A stretch of DNA of 64,000 bases from Candidatus Moraniibacteriota bacterium. Lineage in GTDB: Bacteria > Patescibacteriota > Minisyncoccia > Moranbacterales > UBA9337. Below the pieces are notes generated by a model. It had not been told where the DNA came from, did no database searches, and was given only the letters and a program-made list of their open reading frames with translations. The translations under genes were made by a program, and so were the position numbers. The stretch covers positions 97,163 through 161,162 of the forward strand of contig JALSQF010000010.1 in the NCBI GenBank assembly GCA_026985555.1, written 5' to 3'. Shown here piece by piece: positions 5,825-48,167 of this stretch (positions within the stretch are counted from its first letter, which is position 1; every line of letters begins with the position of its first letter).

Positions 5825-6172
5825 ATGTATCCAAAAGTTATTTTCTTTTTCCTAACCCTTTTTATTATAAGTAGTTTTTCTTGGTTGGCTTATCAAGAGA
5901 AGAAACAAGAAGAGATTAAAAATCAATGGTTTCTTTATTTTCAAAATCCGCAACAGCCAGATTTAAATTTTGTAATAGAAAACTATACTGACAATAAAAA
6001 TTTTAAGTGGTTACTTTTAAAAAATGAACAGCTTGTAAAAAAAGAAGATATGATTATTAAAAACAAAGAAAATAAAGAAATAAAAATTAATTCAAATAAT
6101 TTTTCAGGAAAAATAATTGTTAAAGTTCAACACAATGGAGAAGAAAAAGAAATTTATAAAATTCTCAAATAA
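5825..6172 (+). CDS. small protein with an N-terminal signal or anchor helix
   Basis: The hydrophobic N-terminus is MYPKVIFFFLTLFIISSFSWLAYQ. The start lies 13 nt after the preceding gene. Confidence 0.45.
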   Translation: MYPKVIFFFLTLFIISSFSWLAYQEKKQEEIKNQWFLYFQNPQQPDLNFVIENYTDNKNFKWLLLKNEQLVKKEDMIIKNKENKEIKINSNNFSGKIIVKVQHNGEEKEIYKILK

Positions 6173-6420
6173 AAAAACCACGTTCCTGAAAGGCCAAATT
6201 AAATTGTTAATTTGGGAAAGCTTAAACTTTCAACGTGGAATAATTTTTAAAATAATCCTGTCAGGCACTCCGCCAATTCTCCTTTAAGCGCGTTCAACAT
6301 CTTGCCAAGAACGTGGCTCCTCTATTGAAAAACGCTCTGAAACGGAGGAGCAGCAATTAGGAACGGAGAATTTAAAATATTTTTCCCAATCACTACTGAA
6401 CCCTGACAGGATGCATGCAT
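6173..6420. ncRNA. unclassified structured RNA candidate; GC-rich island with nested helices
   Basis: No ORF of 60 aa or more is present and GC content is visibly elevated. An 11-bp perfect stem (atcctgtcagg at 6255..6265 paired with cctgacaggat at 6402..6412) encloses three further helices: gctcctc/gaggagc, aattctcc/ggagaatt and gcgtt/aacgc. A 5' domain has a stem ccacgtt (6178..6184) paired with aacgtgg (6232..6238) that encloses hairpins gaaag/ctttc and ccaaattaa/ttaatttgg. The strand could not be decided. Confidence 0.35.
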
Positions 6421-6486
6421 TAGTAAGTTAGCGTAATTATTAAAAATTGTCAAGATTTTCTTACTTAAAAAATTAACTTTAAAATT

Positions 6487-7644
6487 ATGAAAGAGAAAAA
6501 AATTTTATATATTACTCGTCCTCTTTCCCCTCCTTGGGATGAAGCCAGTAAAAATTTTGCTTATAATTTAGCTCAACAAATAGCTTTAAAAAATTCCAAT
6601 TTTGAAATCAACATTTTAACTAAAAAAAAATTAACTAATCTTTCTTCTAATATTAGACAATATTCTATTTATACTTCTTCACAAAACGATTTCAATTGGC
6701 GCCAAAAAAAATATCTTTTTCAATTTTTATTAAAAACGATTCTTCAAAATAAATTTAATCTCTGGCACTCTTTTTTTACTCCAACCAAAATGAACACTTT
6801 TTTATTAAAAACTATTTTCAATCTTTCTTTTAAAAAAAATAAACCTAGAACTATTCAAACCATAGCCACCTTACGAGAAGATCTTTACTCAGAAAAAGAA
6901 TTTAAAAAAATACTTTTTGCTGATTGGCTAATAACTTATTCTCACTATGCCTTAAAACGTTTGAAAAAAATGGGATTTAAAAATGTTACTCAAATTTATC
7001 CCGGTATTGATTTAAAAAAATTTAAATTAACTTCTAAAAATTCTTTTCTTTTAAAAAAATATAATTTTTCTCAAAATGATTTCATCATTAATTTCACAGG
7101 AGAATATGTGCGTTTAAACGCTATAGATGATGTAATAAGTTCTTTTTTAGAAATAAGTCAAAAAATTCCTCAAGCTAAATTATCTCTAGCAGTCAGAGTT
7201 AAAAATTCTCAAGACGCGCAAAAGAAAAAAGAAGTTATTCAATTTCTTCAAAAGAATAATTTATTAAAAAGAGTAGCATTTCACGATGATGGAAATTATA
7301 CTATGTCTGATATTTATAATTTAGCTGATGTTAGTCTTTTCCCTGTTCAAAATATGCAAGGAAAATTTGATATACCCTTAGCAGTTATAGAAGCTATGGC
7401 TTGTGAAAAACCGGTAGTTATTTCTGATATTCCTATTTTACAAGAATTTTCTAATCAAAAAAATTCAGTTCAAATAAAAGCCGGAAATTTTAAACAACTA
7501 TCTAATGCTGTTATAGATCTTTATAAAAATCCAGAAAAAAGATTAAAAATCGGAAAACGAGCTCGGCAATATGTCAAAAATAACTTTAATTTAGAAAATG
7601 CAGAGCAAAAATATTCTCAATTATACCATTCTTTATTAAAATAA
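6487..7644 (+). CDS. glycosyltransferase, GT4/GT1 family
   Basis: The C-terminal IPLAVIEAMACEKPVVISDIPILQEF matches the GT-B donor-binding motif. Confidence 0.65.
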   Translation: MKEKKILYITRPLSPPWDEASKNFAYNLAQQIALKNSNFEINILTKKKLTNLSSNIRQYSIYTSSQNDFNWRQKKYLFQFLLKTILQNKFNLWHSFFTPTKMNTFLLKTIFNLSFKKNKPRTIQTIATLREDLYSEKEFKKILFADWLITYSHYALKRLKKMGFKNVTQIYPGIDLKKFKLTSKNSFLLKKYNFSQNDFIINFTGEYVRLNAIDDVISSFLEISQKIPQAKLSLAVRVKNSQDAQKKKEVIQFLQKNNLLKRVAFHDDGNYTMSDIYNLADVSLFPVQNMQGKFDIPLAVIEAMACEKPVVISDIPILQEFSNQKNSVQIKAGNFKQLSNAVIDLYKNPEKRLKIGKRARQYVKNNFNLENAEQKYSQLYHSLLK

Positions 7645-11369: not shown

Positions 11370-11654
11370 TTAGCAAGTTCCTGTAGAACAAGAGGGAGTT
11401 TCTACTACAAAAGTTTGTCTATCTTTCCATTCTTCTGCTTTACCTTTGTTCCAACGTCTTACTGGAGTATGAAAACCAACTACGCGAGAATAAACATCGC
11501 AAGGTTGATAATTTTCTAAAACAGGATTAGCTTTATAACAACTTTTGCATTTTATAGCATCCTCTCCTTCAACAGCGCTAGTATAGCGCACGTATTTTTC
11601 CCCTTTTTTAATTGTCTTACCACAATCATGGCAAACTAATTTTTGTGTTTTCAT
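11370..11654 (-). CDS. stand-alone C-terminal module of anaerobic ribonucleotide reductase: Zn ribbon plus glycyl-radical loop
   Basis: It has CHDCG and CKSC (four-Cys ribbon) followed by YSRVVGFHTPVRRWNKGKAEEWKDR. This compares with E. coli NrdD C-terminus CYECG..CPKCG..RRVCGYLGSP..NAGKQEEVKRR. Confidence 0.8.
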   Translation of the reverse strand: MKTQKLVCHDCGKTIKKGEKYVRYTSAVEGEDAIKCKSCYKANPVLENYQPCDVYSRVVGFHTPVRRWNKGKAEEWKDRQTFVVETPSCSTGTC

Positions 11655-11786
11655 ATTTTATTTTTCAGTTATATAATTCTTATTTGTTTTTTTATTAATT
11701 TTAATTTACTTAAGAATTATACAACTTAATTTTAATTACTTATTACTTATTATATATAAACATCCTAAAAGGATGATAATTTGTTT

Positions 11787-13841
11787 TTAAGCCACTTCAA
11801 ACTTTACTTTTTGTTGAGATAATTCTAGTTTACACTTAGGACAGGTATGATGTTCCCCTTTAATATAACCATGCTTGGGACAAATACTGAATGTGGGTGT
11901 AAAGGTAAAATAAGGTAAAGCATAGTTAGTTGCAATAGTTCTCACTAAATTTTTTACTACTTCTATATCATTTATTTTTTCTCCTAAAAATCCATGCAAG
12001 ACTGTTCCTCCTGTGTATTTTGTCTGCAAGTCATCTTGTAGATCTAGAGCTTCAAAAATATCAGAAGTAAAACCAACAGGCAACTGTGAAGAATTAGTAT
12101 AGTAAGGTTCAGCATTTTCTTCTTTCACTGCTTGATCATTAGCAAAAATAATATCTGGAAAACGTTCTTTGTCTAATTTAGCTAAACGATAAGTAGTTCC
12201 TTCCGCAGGAGTAGCTTCTAAATTATAGAGATGTTCTGTTTCTTTTTGATAAGTTAAAAGTTTCTTTCTCATATGTTTGAGAACACGTTGCGCAAAACGA
12301 TTTCCTTCATAAGTAGTGATATCTTTACCTAACAAATTAAGTAGACCTTCGTTTAAACCTACTAAACCAATGGTAGAAAAATGATTAGCCCAATAGCTAC
12401 CTTGTTTTCTTTTTATATCTCCTAAATAATGTTTAGAATAAGGATAAAGTCCTGTTTCGGTTAGCTTTTCAATAAAAACTCTTTTTAATTCTAAGCTTTC
12501 TTTAGCCACTTCCATTAAATAGTCAACCCTTTGAAGAAACTCTTCTCTATTTTTTGATAAATAACCTATGCGTGGCATATTTAAAGTAACTACGCCAATG
12601 GAACCAGTCATAGGATTAGCGCCAAATAATCCTCCTCCTCGCTTCCTTAATTCTCTATTATCTAAACGTAAACGACAACACATACTACGCGCATCATCAG
12701 GACTCATATCAGAATTAACAAAATTAGCAAAATAAGGCATTCCATATTTAGCTGTCATTTCCCAAATAGGATTTAAAGCAGGATCGTCCCAATTAAAATC
12801 TTTGGTAATGTTATAGGTGGGAATAGGAAAAGTGAAAACTCTTTTTTGTGCATCTCCTTCTGACATAACTTCTGCAAAAGCCTTATTAATCATATTCATT
12901 TCCTTTTGATATTCACTATAAGTATGAGGCTGGGGCATTCCTCCTATAATAACAGCTTCGTCTTTTAAAGTAGAGGGAACTTGTAAATCTAAAGTAATAT
13001 TAGAAAATGGCGTTTGGAAACCTACTCTAGTAGGAACATTCATATTAAATACAAATTCTTGAAGAGCTTGTTTTACTTCTTTATATTTTAATTTATCAAA
13101 ATGAACAAAAGGAGCTAGTAAAGTATCAAAATTAGAAAAAGCTTGTGCTCCATTAGCTTCTCCTTGAAGAGTATATATAAAATTTACCATTTGTCCTAAA
13201 GCACTTCGGAAATGTTTAGGAGGAGCAGAATGAACCTTGCCTGGAACGCCGCCAAATCCTTTCAAAAGTAAATCTTTAAGATCCCAACCGCAACAATAAG
13301 CAGCTACCATTTGTAAATCATGCACATGGAGATCTCCTTCTTCGTGCGCTTTTCTAATACGTTCTGTGTAAACTCTATTCATCCAATATTTAGCGCTAAC
13401 AATAGAAGAAATAAAATTATTTAATCCTTGTAAACTATATCCCATATTAGAATTTTCTTTTGTTCTCCAATCCGCTTCCCCAATATATTTATCAACTAAA
13501 TCAATAGCATCTTTTAAAGCATCTTCTGTTTCTCTTACTTTACGATGTTGATCACGATAAAGAATATACGCTTTAGCTGTTTCTTCAAAATCTAAAACCA
13601 TTAAAACACGTTCTACTATGTCTTGAATCTCTTCTATTTCTGGTATATAACCTTGACGATGATTTTTGTTAAGTAATTGAATTACTTTACGAGTTACTTT
13701 AATAGCTTCTTTTTCTCCTCCTTCTTTAGTTTCTTGAAGTGCTTTTTGAACCGCTTTAATAATTTTTTCTTTTTTAAAAGCGACTATTCTTCCACTTCTT
13801 TTGATAACTTTTTTTACTTTGTTTTTTATTGGTCTTGGCAT
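11787..13841 (-). CDS. nrdD: anaerobic ribonucleoside-triphosphate reductase catalytic subunit, ending after its Zn ribbon and lacking the glycyl-radical loop
   Basis: It has an N-terminal ATP-cone, a class III RNR core and C-terminal PTFSICPKHGYIKGEHHTCPKCK. The ORF stops 15 aa after CPKC without any RVxGY motif. Confidence 0.85.
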   Translation of the reverse strand: MPRPIKNKVKKVIKRSGRIVAFKKEKIIKAVQKALQETKEGGEKEAIKVTRKVIQLLNKNHRQGYIPEIEEIQDIVERVLMVLDFEETAKAYILYRDQHRKVRETEDALKDAIDLVDKYIGEADWRTKENSNMGYSLQGLNNFISSIVSAKYWMNRVYTERIRKAHEEGDLHVHDLQMVAAYCCGWDLKDLLLKGFGGVPGKVHSAPPKHFRSALGQMVNFIYTLQGEANGAQAFSNFDTLLAPFVHFDKLKYKEVKQALQEFVFNMNVPTRVGFQTPFSNITLDLQVPSTLKDEAVIIGGMPQPHTYSEYQKEMNMINKAFAEVMSEGDAQKRVFTFPIPTYNITKDFNWDDPALNPIWEMTAKYGMPYFANFVNSDMSPDDARSMCCRLRLDNRELRKRGGGLFGANPMTGSIGVVTLNMPRIGYLSKNREEFLQRVDYLMEVAKESLELKRVFIEKLTETGLYPYSKHYLGDIKRKQGSYWANHFSTIGLVGLNEGLLNLLGKDITTYEGNRFAQRVLKHMRKKLLTYQKETEHLYNLEATPAEGTTYRLAKLDKERFPDIIFANDQAVKEENAEPYYTNSSQLPVGFTSDIFEALDLQDDLQTKYTGGTVLHGFLGEKINDIEVVKNLVRTIATNYALPYFTFTPTFSICPKHGYIKGEHHTCPKCKLELSQQKVKFEVA

Positions 13842-14545: not shown

Positions 14546-14548
14546 ATG

Positions 14549-14621
14549 TGGACCGGACAGGACTTGAACCCGCCACCTCCTCGGTGCAAACGAGGTGCTC
14601 TACCAGATGAGCTACCGGCCC
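14549..14621 (-). tRNA. tRNA-Ala (anticodon TGC)
   Basis: The minus strand reads gggccggtagctcatctggtagagcacctcgtttgcaccgaggaggtggcgggttcaagtcctgtccggtcca. It has a G3:U70 pair, an anticodon loop tttgcac, a T-loop ggttcaagtcc and discriminator A. CCA is not encoded. Confidence 0.9.
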
Positions 14622-14644
14622 GTTTAATTAAAATTTTCTATCTA

Positions 14645-14718
14645 GTGGGCATACCAGGATTTGAACCTGGGACCTCAACATTATCAGTGTTGCGCTCTAA
14701 CCAACTGAGCTATATGCC
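14645..14718 (-). tRNA. tRNA-Ile (anticodon GAT)
   Basis: The minus strand reads gggcatatagctcagttggttagagcgcaacactgataatgttgaggtcccaggttcaaatcctggtatgccca. It has an anticodon loop ctgataa and a T-loop ggttcaaatcc. Confidence 0.9.
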
Positions 14719-14778
14719 CTCATTTAAAAACATTAAAAATACTTACTCAGATAATATATAATAAATAAAAAATATTGT

Positions 14779-23357: not shown

Positions 23358-23441
23358 GCCGCGGTGGTGGAATTGGTAGACACGAGAGACTTAAAATCTC
23401 TTGGGATTATTCCCGTGTGGGTTCGAGTCCCACCCGTGGCA
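23358..23441 (+). tRNA. tRNA-Leu (anticodon TAA), class II with a long variable arm
   Basis: Sequence is gccgcggtggtggaattggtagacacgagagacttaaaatctcttgggattattcccgtgtgggttcgagtcccacccgtggca. It has an anticodon loop cttaaaa and discriminator A. Confidence 0.85.
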
Positions 23442-23457
23442 CACTAAAAAATTATTT

Positions 23458-25644
23458 ATGAAACTTTTAATCGTTGAATCTCCTTCAAAAACAAAAACTA
23501 TTAAAAAATATTTAGGATCAGATTATCAAGTGACTTCTTCGGTAGGACATATTCGTGATTTACCTAAAAACAATAAAAAAGCTATAGAGATAGAAAATAA
23601 TTATCGTCCTCACTACATAGTTATTGAAAACAAAAAGGATGTTATTGATAATTTAAAAAAAATATCTCAAAAAGCTAAAATTATTTATCTAGCTACTGAT
23701 CCAGATAGAGAAGGAGAAGCTATTGCTTGGCACATTGCTCAAATATTAAAAATAAAAGATAAAAAACGATTACAAAGAATTGTTTTTCATGAAATTACTC
23801 CTGAAGCAATTAAACAAGCCTTAAATCATCCTCGCTCTATTGATAAAAAATTAGTTAAGGCGCAGGAAGCGCGTAGAGTGTTAGATCGTCTTTTTGGATA
23901 TGATTTATCTGGCTTAATTTGGAAAAAAGTTCGCTATGGATTAAGTGCTGGCAGAGTTCAATCACCAGCTTTAAGAATTTTAGTAGAACGAGAAAGAGCC
24001 ATTCGCGCTTTTCGTCCAGAAAAATATTGGGTACTTACTGCTAAAGTTAAATCTTTTAAAAACAAAAGTTCACTTCCTTTTGTTTTAAGTTGCTCAAAAG
24101 AAATTAAAGATAAAAAAGAATTAAATCATATTTTAAAATTAGCCCCTCAAAAAAAATGGATAGTAGATAATATTACACATCGTCAAGTAAAGAAAAATCC
24201 CTATCCTCCTTTTACTACTTCCACTCTCCAACAAAGCGCTAGCTCTCAGTTAGGATTATCTCCTTCTCAAACTATGTTTTATGCTCAAAAACTTTATGAA
24301 GCTGGTTATATTACTTACATGCGCACGGATAGTGTTACTTTAAGTCATAAAGCTCAAAAACAAATTGGTTCTTTAATCAAAAAAGAATTTGGAGAAAAAT
24401 ATTTAGACTTAAAACAATTTAAAAATCGCTCTAAAAATGCTCAAGAAGCACACGAAGCTATTCGTCCTTCTAATTTTAATTTAAAAAATCTTGGAAAAAA
24501 TAAAACAGAAAAAAAACTTTATCAACTAATTTGGCAAAGAGCTGTAGCTTCTCAAATGTCTCCTGCTCAAATACAACAATCAAAAATTAAAGTAAACGTG
24601 GGAGAAAAAAAAGATAAAATTCCCTATTTTTTTGTTAATGGTTCTCATATAGTTTTTGATGGTTGGTTTATTTTAAATTCTTCTTTTAAAAAAATAGAGG
24701 AAAAAATTCCACCAGTAGATAAAAATGAAAAATTAAAATTATTGAAAATAAATCAAGAAGAAAAAGAAACTACTCCCCCTCCCCGTTATTCAGAGGCAGG
24801 ATTAGTAAAGGAATTAGAAAAACGTGGAATTGGACGACCTTCTACTTATGCTTCTATCATTCGCACTTTACATACCAGAGGATATACAGAAAAAGAAGGC
24901 AGATCTTTAAAACCAACAGAAATGGGAGAAATTGTCAGCACTTTTTTAGAAAAAAACTTTACTAAATATATCAGTGATTCTTTTACAGCTAAACTAGAAA
25001 ATCAATTAGATGAAATTGCGAAAGGGAAAATGAAATATACTGAAGTTTTAGATAATTTTTATCAACATTTTAATCAAGACATTAAACGAAAAGAGAAAAT
25101 ACCTAAAATTACTAATTTGGGTCCTGCTGATGCTAAATTTAAATGCCCTCTCTGTAAAGGGCCTATGATAATTAAATTAGGAAAAAATGGAAAATTTTTA
25201 AGCTGCGCTAAATTTCCAGAATGCAAAGGAATGCGCACTGTGGAGGGAAAAATAATTGAAGAACCTAAAGAAACAGGAGAAATTTGTCCTGAATGCGGAA
25301 GTCCCTTAATAGAACGTGAGGGACGTTATGGAAAATTCATTGCCTGCTCTAATTATCCTCAATGCAAATATATCAAAAAAGATCCTCAAGAAGAAAAAAA
25401 GAAGTCCACCGGTATAAAATGTCCTCTTTGCAAAAAGGGAGAATTAATTGAAAAAAATGGACGTTATGGAAAATTTTACGCTTGCTCTAATTATCCTCAG
25501 TGCAAATATACTATCAAAGCTAAGCCTACTGGAAAAAAGTGTCCTCTATGCGGATCTCTTATGATGAAAGGAACTAAAACTATTCCTGAACGTTGTTCTA
25601 ATAAAAACTGCCCTAATTATAGACCAGATAAATTAAAAAAATAA
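23458..25644 (+). CDS. topA: DNA topoisomerase I
   Basis: The Toprim start is MKLLIVESPSKTKTIKKYLG. There are four C-terminal C4 zinc ribbons: CPLCKG..C..C, CPECG, CPLCKKG and CPLCGS. The track ORF begins upstream inside tRNA-Leu, so the ATG at 23458 is preferred. Confidence 0.9.
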   Translation: MKLLIVESPSKTKTIKKYLGSDYQVTSSVGHIRDLPKNNKKAIEIENNYRPHYIVIENKKDVIDNLKKISQKAKIIYLATDPDREGEAIAWHIAQILKIKDKKRLQRIVFHEITPEAIKQALNHPRSIDKKLVKAQEARRVLDRLFGYDLSGLIWKKVRYGLSAGRVQSPALRILVERERAIRAFRPEKYWVLTAKVKSFKNKSSLPFVLSCSKEIKDKKELNHILKLAPQKKWIVDNITHRQVKKNPYPPFTTSTLQQSASSQLGLSPSQTMFYAQKLYEAGYITYMRTDSVTLSHKAQKQIGSLIKKEFGEKYLDLKQFKNRSKNAQEAHEAIRPSNFNLKNLGKNKTEKKLYQLIWQRAVASQMSPAQIQQSKIKVNVGEKKDKIPYFFVNGSHIVFDGWFILNSSFKKIEEKIPPVDKNEKLKLLKINQEEKETTPPPRYSEAGLVKELEKRGIGRPSTYASIIRTLHTRGYTEKEGRSLKPTEMGEIVSTFLEKNFTKYISDSFTAKLENQLDEIAKGKMKYTEVLDNFYQHFNQDIKRKEKIPKITNLGPADAKFKCPLCKGPMIIKLGKNGKFLSCAKFPECKGMRTVEGKIIEEPKETGEICPECGSPLIEREGRYGKFIACSNYPQCKYIKKDPQEEKKKSTGIKCPLCKKGELIEKNGRYGKFYACSNYPQCKYTIKAKPTGKKCPLCGSLMMKGTKTIPERCSNKNCPNYRPDKLKK

Positions 25645-47655: not shown

Positions 47656-47762
47656 AATCTTAATCATTTTATTTGTTAAATATATAAAAAATAGAATTAA
47701 TTATTTTATTGAAAAAGAGCAGACATCCTTAATGGATACTGCTCTTAGTTTTTCTTAGTTTT

Positions 47763-48167
47763 TTAATATCTCGTATAGCCCGCATAACCTTCTTCGCGGG
47801 CCCTCCGAATTCTTTCTTGTTTGATTCTACGGATCCTTTCCGCTTGTCCTTGCCGACAAGCGTTTCTCTCCTCCGAAGTAGGATAGCGATAGCTATCCTC
47901 GCAATTCACCGGCTGCAAAATTTGCTTTTGCACCGGTGCTTGTTGCACTGGCACTACCGGCATTGTAGAATATGCCGGTGCCGGATACACAGGGAAAATA
48001 GAACGAGTGATACCCCTCATATCTATTATCCCTGCCCTATCCGCTAGCCCTATACTCTCCAAGATAATGAGAGTATTGAGTTTGCCTGCTGTTCCTGCTT
48101 TAGCAGGGACAGAGAAAGAAAAAATAATTCCGCAAATACAAATAAATACAAAACTGATTTTTTTCAT
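47763..48167 (-). CDS. small secreted Pro/Ala/Gln/Arg-rich protein encoded in a GC-rich island
   Basis: A strong SD (AAAGGAGGT) lies 6 nt before the ATG. The signal peptide is MKKISFVFICICGIIFSFSVPAKA. The mature region is encoded by sequence far more GC-rich than its surroundings. It has two Cys residues and a basic tail RIRRIKQERIRRAREEGYAGYTRY. Confidence 0.5.
   Translation of the reverse strand: MKKISFVFICICGIIFSFSVPAKAGTAGKLNTLIILESIGLADRAGIIDMRGITRSIFPVYPAPAYSTMPVVPVQQAPVQKQILQPVNCEDSYRYPTSEERNACRQGQAERIRRIKQERIRRAREEGYAGYTRY

Follow-up and report, generated by a model that had tools for sequence, protein, structure and literature searches.

Between positions 6178 and 6412 of a 64,000-nucleotide (nt) stretch of a Candidatus Moraniibacteriota genome (contig JALSQF010000010.1, assembly GCA_026985555.1; the whole stretch is called the window below) lies a GC-rich element of many helices. 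The element is genuine and stands out in this genome, but it is an orphan. Its self-complementarity exceeds chance. We read it, tentatively and at somewhat less than an even chance, as a species-specific, single-copy small RNA of ~245 nt, transcribed from the minus strand from ~6418 to 6173. It occurs in a single species, so it can be no more than an unverifiable small RNA candidate, and it may instead be what is left of an inserted hairpin element.

The element occupies a 314-nt spacer between a small open reading frame (ORF) encoding a 115-amino-acid (aa) membrane protein (5825-6172, plus strand) and a GT4 glycosyltransferase gene (6487-7644, plus strand; Pfam Glycos_transf_1). It is composed of a Y-shaped domain of 61 nt and a core of 158 nt (6255-6412). 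Along the plus strand, the spacer consists of an A7 run, the Y domain, a 16-nt linker, the core and 74 nt of AT-rich DNA. The initial annotation, made from the sequence alone, had placed the A-run at 6173..6177; it is present, but its actual extent is seven A's, 6171-6177, the first two belonging to the TAA stop of the 115-aa ORF. The G+C content is 0.45 in the core and 0.38 in the Y domain against a window mean of 0.267, and ranges from 0.06 to 0.24 in all other intergenic regions of the window of at least 80 nt. The element is thus the sole GC-rich intergenic region in 64 kb (27% G+C), and the only comparable non-coding peaks are the four tRNA genes. Just two ORFs overlap it, of 56 aa and 43 aa; both begin with TTG, neither has a Pfam match and neither is gene-like. 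The initial description of GC-rich DNA with no ORF is upheld. Direct repeats inside the element amount to a single AT-rich pair of 71% identity.

The core is closed by P1, a perfect 11-bp helix (6255-6265 / 6402-6412), and these two sites are the only matches of the arm in 64 kb. Further complementarities within the core are aattctcc/ggagaatt (6275-6282 / 6365-6372) and, as read from the sequence, gctcctc/gaggagc (6316-6322 / 6345-6351) and gcgtt/aacgc (6290-6294 / 6331-6335). The Y domain is closed by the stem ccacgtt/aacgtgg (6178-6184 / 6232-6238), which contains the hairpins ccaaattaa/ttaatttgg (6194-6202 / 6207-6215) and gaaag/ctttc (6216-6220 / 6227-6231). All of these helices had been named in the initial annotation and each is present where it had been placed, but as a set they are not jointly nestable, given that gcgtt/aacgc crosses gctcctc/gaggagc. 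A 15-bp helix, P2 (6349-6363 / 6383-6397), had been missed; it includes four G-U pairs on the minus strand and is crossed by aattctcc/ggagaatt. Two perfect 8-bp pairings also connect the Y domain with the core (6178-6185 / 6309-6316 and 6212-6219 / 6382-6389), and forcing the first of them gives a fold just 6 kcal/mol above the minimum free energy (MFE).

This degree of complementarity is not expected from composition. The 253 nt examined hold five perfect complementarities of at least 8 bp, compared with 0.79 expected (1 of 300 dinucleotide shuffles), and four of the five contain G or C, compared with 0.30 expected (0 of 300 shuffles). The MFE of the minus strand is -80.3 kcal/mol (z = -5.19; none of 200 dinucleotide shuffles as low), and that of the plus strand is -66.2 kcal/mol (z = -3.44). 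The MFE structure is branched, its interior is not rod-like and non-nested pairings are present, so an RNA fold fits better than a DNA palindrome. The features of the putative minus-strand transcript, in its 5' to 3' direction, are the following.

6448..6453, minus strand: putative -35 box TTGACA, read from the sequence (the plus strand of the same bases is given as TTGTCA).
6425..6430, minus strand: putative -10 box TAACTT, 17 nt after the -35 box, matching TATAAT at 3 of 6 positions; predicted start near 6418.
6402..6412, minus strand: 5' arm of P1, AUCCUGUCAGG, perfect over 11 bp with 6255-6265.
6383..6397, minus strand: 5' arm of P2, AGUAGUGAUUGGGAA, partner 6349-6363, 15 bp with four G-U pairs in the MFE structure.
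6364..6382, minus strand: P2 loop of 19 nt; its AAUUCUCC (6372-6365) could form a pseudoknot with GGAGAAUU (6282-6275), to which it is complementary without mismatch, at a duplex energy of -11.0 kcal/mol.
6349..6363, minus strand: 3' arm of P2, from the MFE structure and its list of G-U pairs.
6273..6348, minus strand: P3/P4 arm, an irregular long hairpin with the apical stem GCCA/UGGC (6313-6316 / 6303-6306) in both MFE and centroid structures; it also holds the alternative helices gctcctc/gaggagc and gcgtt/aacgc.
6255..6265, minus strand: 3' arm of P1, CCUGACAGGAU.
6239..6254, minus strand: linker of 16 nt, with no G or C.
6178..6238, minus strand: Y-shaped three-way junction, terminator-like, closed by CCACGUU/AACGUGG, with the hairpins GAAAG..CUUUC and CCAAAUUAA..UUAAUUUGG and a 3-bp CCU/AGG stem.
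6171..6177, minus strand: U7 run directly 3' of the Y stem, corresponding on the plus strand to the A7 run shared in part with the stop of the 115-aa ORF.

Minus-strand transcription ending at the U-run near 6178, as had been suggested initially, is the orientation that best fits these signals. In the window, TTGACA has a frequency of 0.18 per kb and strand, which corresponds to ~0.013 occurrences expected on the minus strand of the 74-nt AT-rich spacer. The accompanying TAACTT is weak, falling below the criterion of our promoter scan (at least 4/6 in each hexamer). The terminator-like signs on this strand consist of a 7-bp stem with four G-C pairs followed by U7. The stem closes a 47-nt branched insert, and it was not called by the consensus terminator scan because its 'loop' is a branched domain. 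Only on the minus strand does the Y stem lead into a U-run, the plus strand continuing with AAUAAUUUUU, and P2 is complete on the minus strand only, its four G-U pairs being A-C mismatches on the other. Neither MFE nor G-U counts were accepted as a basis for assigning the strand. The minus strand has 10 G-U pairs against 2 on the plus strand, but composition-matched shuffles show the same asymmetry (on average 6.5 more G-U pairs and -11 kcal/mol for the minus strand), and the observed values were reached in 38% and 31% of them, respectively. Base composition accordingly accounts for both the lower energy and the larger number of G-U pairs of the minus strand. The proposed orientation keeps its support from the U7 run, the TTGACA-17-TAACTT arrangement, the completeness of P2 on that strand and the unambiguous signals of a related locus described below, but not from folding energy or G-U counts.

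We fetched 20 related loci (numbered L001-L014 and L152-L157) through relatives of the GT4, small-ORF and DUF1616 proteins in GTDB genomes and a collection of 5.8 billion proteins. In one of them, L010, whose small ORF is 50% identical to that of the window, a 153-nt spacer carries a minus-strand promoter called by the scan (TTGACA-16-TAGAAT, 11/12) and a canonical minus-strand terminator, CAGGGCAGAAGCCCTG followed by T6, also called by the scan, which abuts the stop of the small ORF. The two signals bracket a multi-hairpin domain of ~80 nt closed by a 6-bp helix. The layout is shared with the window: a promoter, a P1-closed domain, a short linker, and a terminator whose U-run abuts the small ORF stop. 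Both putative RNAs start with ..CAUCC and the closing helix. Homology of the two was tried and rejected: the MAFFT alignment was uninformative and the covariance model negative, leaving only the architecture and the CAUCC start in common. The L010 locus holds in its own right a candidate small RNA gene of ~110 nt (L010:1561-1705, minus strand), with a near-consensus promoter, a four-way-junction-like domain and a canonical terminator, for which Rfam gave no match. The same locus carries a 56-nt nearly perfect palindrome within the GT4 coding sequence (L010:2061-2116), the source of spurious matches to microRNA models.

The element resembles lineage-specific bacterial small RNAs in being intergenic, in the 100-300-nt range, strongly folded and raised in G+C, with promoter- and terminator-like signals on one strand, as in L010. 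It differs from them in having no homolog or predicted target, a branched Y terminator and a weak -10 box. As a small RNA, its synthesis would start after TTGACA-17-TAACTT and proceed through the 158-nt core, which would form the 11-bp P1, the 15-bp hairpin P2 and the long irregular P3/P4; the P2 loop might pair over 8 bp with an internal loop of P3 as a pseudoknot. The transcript would end at the Y-shaped stem and U7, abutting the stop codon of the convergent ORF. The two 8-bp complementarities between core and terminator would permit a second conformation in which the terminator stem is broken, and read-through would then be antisense to the glycosylation operon.

A more ambitious proposal builds on this last step. 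The element would be a lineage-specific regulatory RNA in which a pseudoknotted, P1-closed, sensor-like core and a branched terminator, dismantled by the two 8-bp pairings, set the level of antisense transcription into the GT-DUF1616-small ORF operon (GT, glycosyltransferase), with a shorter version in L010. We regard this full scheme as quite improbable. Riboswitch-controlled antisense transcripts are a class with which it may be compared. The likeness to a riboswitch or attenuator lies in the P1-closed and possibly pseudoknotted core, the stem and U-run 16 nt later, and the competing 8-bp pairings with an alternative fold within 6 kcal/mol. Unlike such a system, the element has no gene downstream on the minus strand, no aptamer conserved in relatives and no Rfam match; for the plus strand, where GT4 follows, it is missing from the GT4 homologs. 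Its competing segments also pair with the 3' strand of the terminator, while in the usual attenuator it is the 5' strand that is paired.

The same spacer holds other hairpins in relatives. In L003 and L005 it contains palindromic repeats with TGTCATCC...GGAATGACA ends, in L011 a hairpin of 175 nt, and in L002 and L004 hairpins of other kinds. This variety indicates that the spacer serves hairpin elements as a landing site, or else that selection favours a stable structure of some kind there. Two of these cases are worth describing separately. Multi-copy palindromes of Moranbacteria, of the form TGTCAT(T)CC...GG(A)ATGACA and with covarying sub-terminal hairpins, were found at L003:5901-5988, L005:5902-5985, L005:3378-3495, L006:6344-6407 and L013:71-143. 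A search for this pattern, positive in those four loci (twice in L005), found none in the window, which shares just CATCC...GGAT at P1 with them. The palindromes resemble, and may be, the UYCCGG-containing MRSC-65-2 mobile/repeat motif, a single long stem with UYCCGG repeats present in dozens of copies per genome (PMC11109978). The L011 hairpin (L011:2951-3125) is nearly perfect (z = -10.2), has 17-bp terminal arms GACCTTTTGCAAAATAA and lies between the small ORF and def.

The recurrence of strong hairpins in nearly every relative that has a spacer (L002, L003, L004, L005, L010, L011) would also suit a structure acting on the plus strand, within a transcript of GT, DUF1616, small ORF and GT4, as a terminator or attenuator, a processing site, a 3'-end stabiliser or a GT4 leader. 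All four genes read along the plus strand and are tightly linked in relatives, the plus strand folds better than chance (z = -3.4), and the Watson-Crick helices all exist on both strands. We nevertheless consider this rather improbable. P2 loses its four G-U pairs to A-C mismatches on that strand, the Y stem is followed by AAUAAUUUUU instead of a U-run, and the L010 terminator is unidirectional, on the minus strand. No conserved leader was found upstream of GT4 homologs, and neither a Shine-Dalgarno sequence nor an obvious sequestering helix was seen at the GT4 start. The position between co-directional cistrons, where hairpins recur in relatives, recalls the intercistronic hairpins of repetitive extragenic palindromic (REP) type. 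Compared with these, the element is much larger, is branched and occurs as a single copy, and the G-U pairs required by its best helix form on the opposite strand.

The distribution of the element is restricted to one species. It is present in three same-species contigs with 0 differences in 253 nt, one of them JBPMOD010000005.1 of assembly GCA_054024795.1; the genome also occurs in the samples ERZ27262668 and SRR33214772. The species is isolated, the best relatives of three neighbouring proteins being 50-62% identical. L001-L006, which are more distant relatives, keep the gene order GT, DUF1616, small ORF, GT4 with spacers of 0-117 nt, so the cluster that now contains the element was ancestrally tight and co-directional. 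Other genes precede the closest GT4 homologs (L152, L153, L154 and L157), and the element is likewise missing there. A search of ~84 kb of the same genome (the 64-kb window and ~20 kb of flanks) found no second copy.

Several of our results weigh against a minus-strand small RNA. The element was not found in the 20 related loci by blastn or nhmmer, where a covariance model of the core (R1) reached at most 13 bits, nor was it matched in viral, phage and plasmid collections. The closest GT4 relatives (up to 62% identity) have spacers of 26-311 nt without it, the L010 RNA is not alignable with it, and it interrupts a gene cluster that was ancestrally tight and co-directional. The three same-species copies are identical and hence offer no covariation. 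To these points are added the poor -10 box, the atypical, branched terminator and the compositional origin of the minus-over-plus folding advantage. The element is identical within the species and absent from the fetched relatives, and the comparison of homologous loci that had been proposed as a check gave neither conservation nor covariation, an outcome that the initial annotation had itself named as refuting its proposal. What stands of the initially suggested 'structured RNA of unknown class' is a real, GC-rich, multi-helix element; its status as a new class lacks comparative support, since the related loci were negative by both sequence and covariance model.

The same distribution leads to the idea that the 158-bp core is the relic of an inserted non-autonomous hairpin element, similar to a miniature inverted-repeat transposable element (MITE) or a REP sequence, with any present role as terminator or insulator being incidental. 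We judge this unlikely, but it is a serious alternative and the main rival to a small RNA. A perfect 11-bp terminal inverted repeat surrounds the 158-bp unit, which is found in one species only, in a small ORF-GT4 spacer that was ancestrally 0-117 nt long, and whose G+C lies far above that of the host, as expected for recently acquired DNA. In relatives, this same spacer is where the multi-copy TGTCATCC...GGAATGACA palindromes (L003, L005) and the 175-nt hairpin of L011 are found. A large rod-like repeat family from metagenomes is of similar length and shares the 10-nt ends, and mobile or repeat candidates are common in surveys of GC-rich intergenic regions (IGRs), making up 250 of 4714 IGRs (PMC11109978). 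In its perfect terminal repeats, its length of ~150-160 bp and its absence from relatives, the element is indeed like mobile hairpin elements. It is unlike them in having one copy in ~84 kb, no CTAG or TA flanks, no rod-like fold, an unrelated interior and no TGTCAT...ATGACA ends. No target-site duplication is present (AAAATA | element | GCATGC), and no transposase was seen in the fetched loci of the same genome. The G+C of a neutral remnant should moreover drift down to the level of the other spacers (6-24%).

The likeness to the metagenome family came from a pattern scan for the P1 arms, TCCTGTCAGG-N(121-151)-CCTGACAGGA, which returned more than 119 loci. They clustered into three groups: a human-gut repeat, the rod-like family, and singletons, of which there were ~25 among the matches listed, roughly the chance estimate. 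The human-gut repeat (at least 69 members: L016, L017, L021, L035, L047, L068, L078 and ~60 more) is conserved over more than 280 nt, with a core of 140-145 nt between CCTGTCAGG arms and extended arms AAAACGAAGCAT / ATGCTTCGTTTT. It occurs in several copies per assembly (e.g. twice in QFCH01000130) and has no Rfam match. With the element it shares 14 nt (GCATCCTGTCAGGG) and nothing else, and it was set aside as a relative.

The rod-like repeat of ~165 bp has the ends CTAG-TGTCCTGTCAGG...CCTGACAGGACA-CTAG (L015, L018, L025, L026, L032, L036, L042, L043, L053, L074, L077, L089, L109, L121). It is widespread, in hosts whose G+C ranges from 43-67% and across which the stems covary, and is present in many copies per assembly with unrelated neighbours. 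Rfam gave no match, and the repeat has the look of a MITE inserting into CTAG. Its conserved interior reads ATAAGTCCG..CAAGGCGC..CAACGCC..CGGAATTA, and a GGAATTA motif is also present. Membership of the window element was suspected because AATTCTCC/GGAGAATT, GCCAAGAACG and AAAAACGC are similarly placed. The terminal repeats, ATCCTGTCAGG / CCTGACAGGAT in the window and TGTCCTGTCAGG / CCTGACAGGACA in the family, have 10 of 12 bases in common, although the search pattern had itself required these 10. An nhmmer profile hidden Markov model (HMM) of the family interior found no match in 6100-6560, and the full profile aligned only the imposed ends. The CTA...TAG flanks are absent, the element being flanked by AAAATA and GCATGC. 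With the interior HMM negative, no CTAG flanks, no rod shape and one copy in ~84 kb, membership in this family was rejected.

Known RNA families do not account for the element. Covariance-model scans with Rfam 15 gave nothing in it, either at the gathering score over the whole window or at E <=10 over 6050-6550 (501 nt) and 6240-6425 (186 nt). The 6050-6550 scan at this threshold returned two weak matches, both outside the element (6085-6118 and 6477-6506). ARAGORN found no tRNA or tmRNA in the element, and its four tRNAs are all elsewhere in the window. The initial failure to match tRNA, tmRNA, SRP RNA, RNase P or a known riboswitch is in agreement with these scans, of which the Rfam search had been proposed as a check.

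A diverged or insertion-bearing housekeeping RNA, such as the signal recognition particle (SRP) RNA, is barely credible. On the plus strand, UGUCAGG (6259-6265)...GGAGGAGCAGCAAUUAGG (6344-6361) resembles the two strands of SRP RNA domain IV/helix 8 in E. coli and B. subtilis. The UGUCAGG...AGCAGCA likeness could be extended by CUCC/GGAG, which would lengthen the helix. No SRP model scored in the Rfam scans, nor did ARAGORN report a tmRNA. The GNRA tetraloop would have to be replaced by ~75 nt, and GUCAGG is locked inside the perfect 11-bp P1.

Also very improbable is a coding origin, in which a minus-strand pseudogene would have left a fragment of an ankyrin-like repeat. The 43-aa minus-strand ORF (6453-6322) has one match in 1.84 billion proteins (E = 8e-4), to three ankyrin-repeat units, but this match is single, borderline and helped by the repeats of its target. 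Pfam ankyrin models gave no match to the 43-aa peptide at E <=1, and the ORF begins with TTG in AT-rich, promoter-like DNA. No ankyrin gene was seen at this position in related loci, and a coding remnant would leave the excess of perfect inverted complementarities unexplained.

In the ranking of GC-rich IGRs by the Breaker laboratory, a motif with one unique representative is 'unnamed' or low-ranking (PMC11109978). By this standard the element is worth following up by transcriptomics but does not amount to a new RNA class. If it is a true small RNA, it would be among the very few candidate regulatory RNAs described for Parcubacteria and the candidate phyla radiation (CPR), in which gene regulation is almost unknown, and it would lie inside a glycosylation gene cluster relevant to the cell envelope. 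Two of the negative results are of use in their own right: the strand call that folding energy gives here is an artefact of composition, and having the ends of a large MITE family does not make the element one of its members.

Other features of the window and its surroundings were observed in the course of the analysis. The GC skew of the GT4 gene (6487-7644) is strongly negative, reaching -0.6, although the gene lies on the plus strand, whereas skew tracks the coding strand elsewhere in the window. A replication terminus or dif site, considered from the local switch in GC skew, was rejected, as the skew just follows gene orientation with the exception of this C-rich gene. NrdD looks split (11370-13841, minus strand): a 684-aa ORF (11787-13841) stops before the glycyl-radical motif, and a 94-aa ORF (11370-11654, minus strand), which was scored as NRDD in a same-species contig, carries ...YSRVVGFHTPVRRWNKGK...; the two are separated by 132 AT-rich nt with the hairpin CATCCTTTTAGGATG. 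The genes for tRNA-Ile(GAT) and tRNA-Ala(TGC) (14548-14719, minus strand) form the usual pair of rRNA operon spacers, with no rRNA gene in the 64-kb window. A TTG-start ORF (23401-25644) overlaps tRNA-Leu(TAA) (23358-23442), so its true start is further downstream. The highest G+C peak of the window (0.53, 47741-48121) lies over a 134-aa ORF (47763-48167, minus strand). Past the right end of the window, in the same genome (L156:680-1700), 1 kb at 0.45-0.56 G+C covers genes for TPR-repeat proteins, in a locus with a mean of 0.29.

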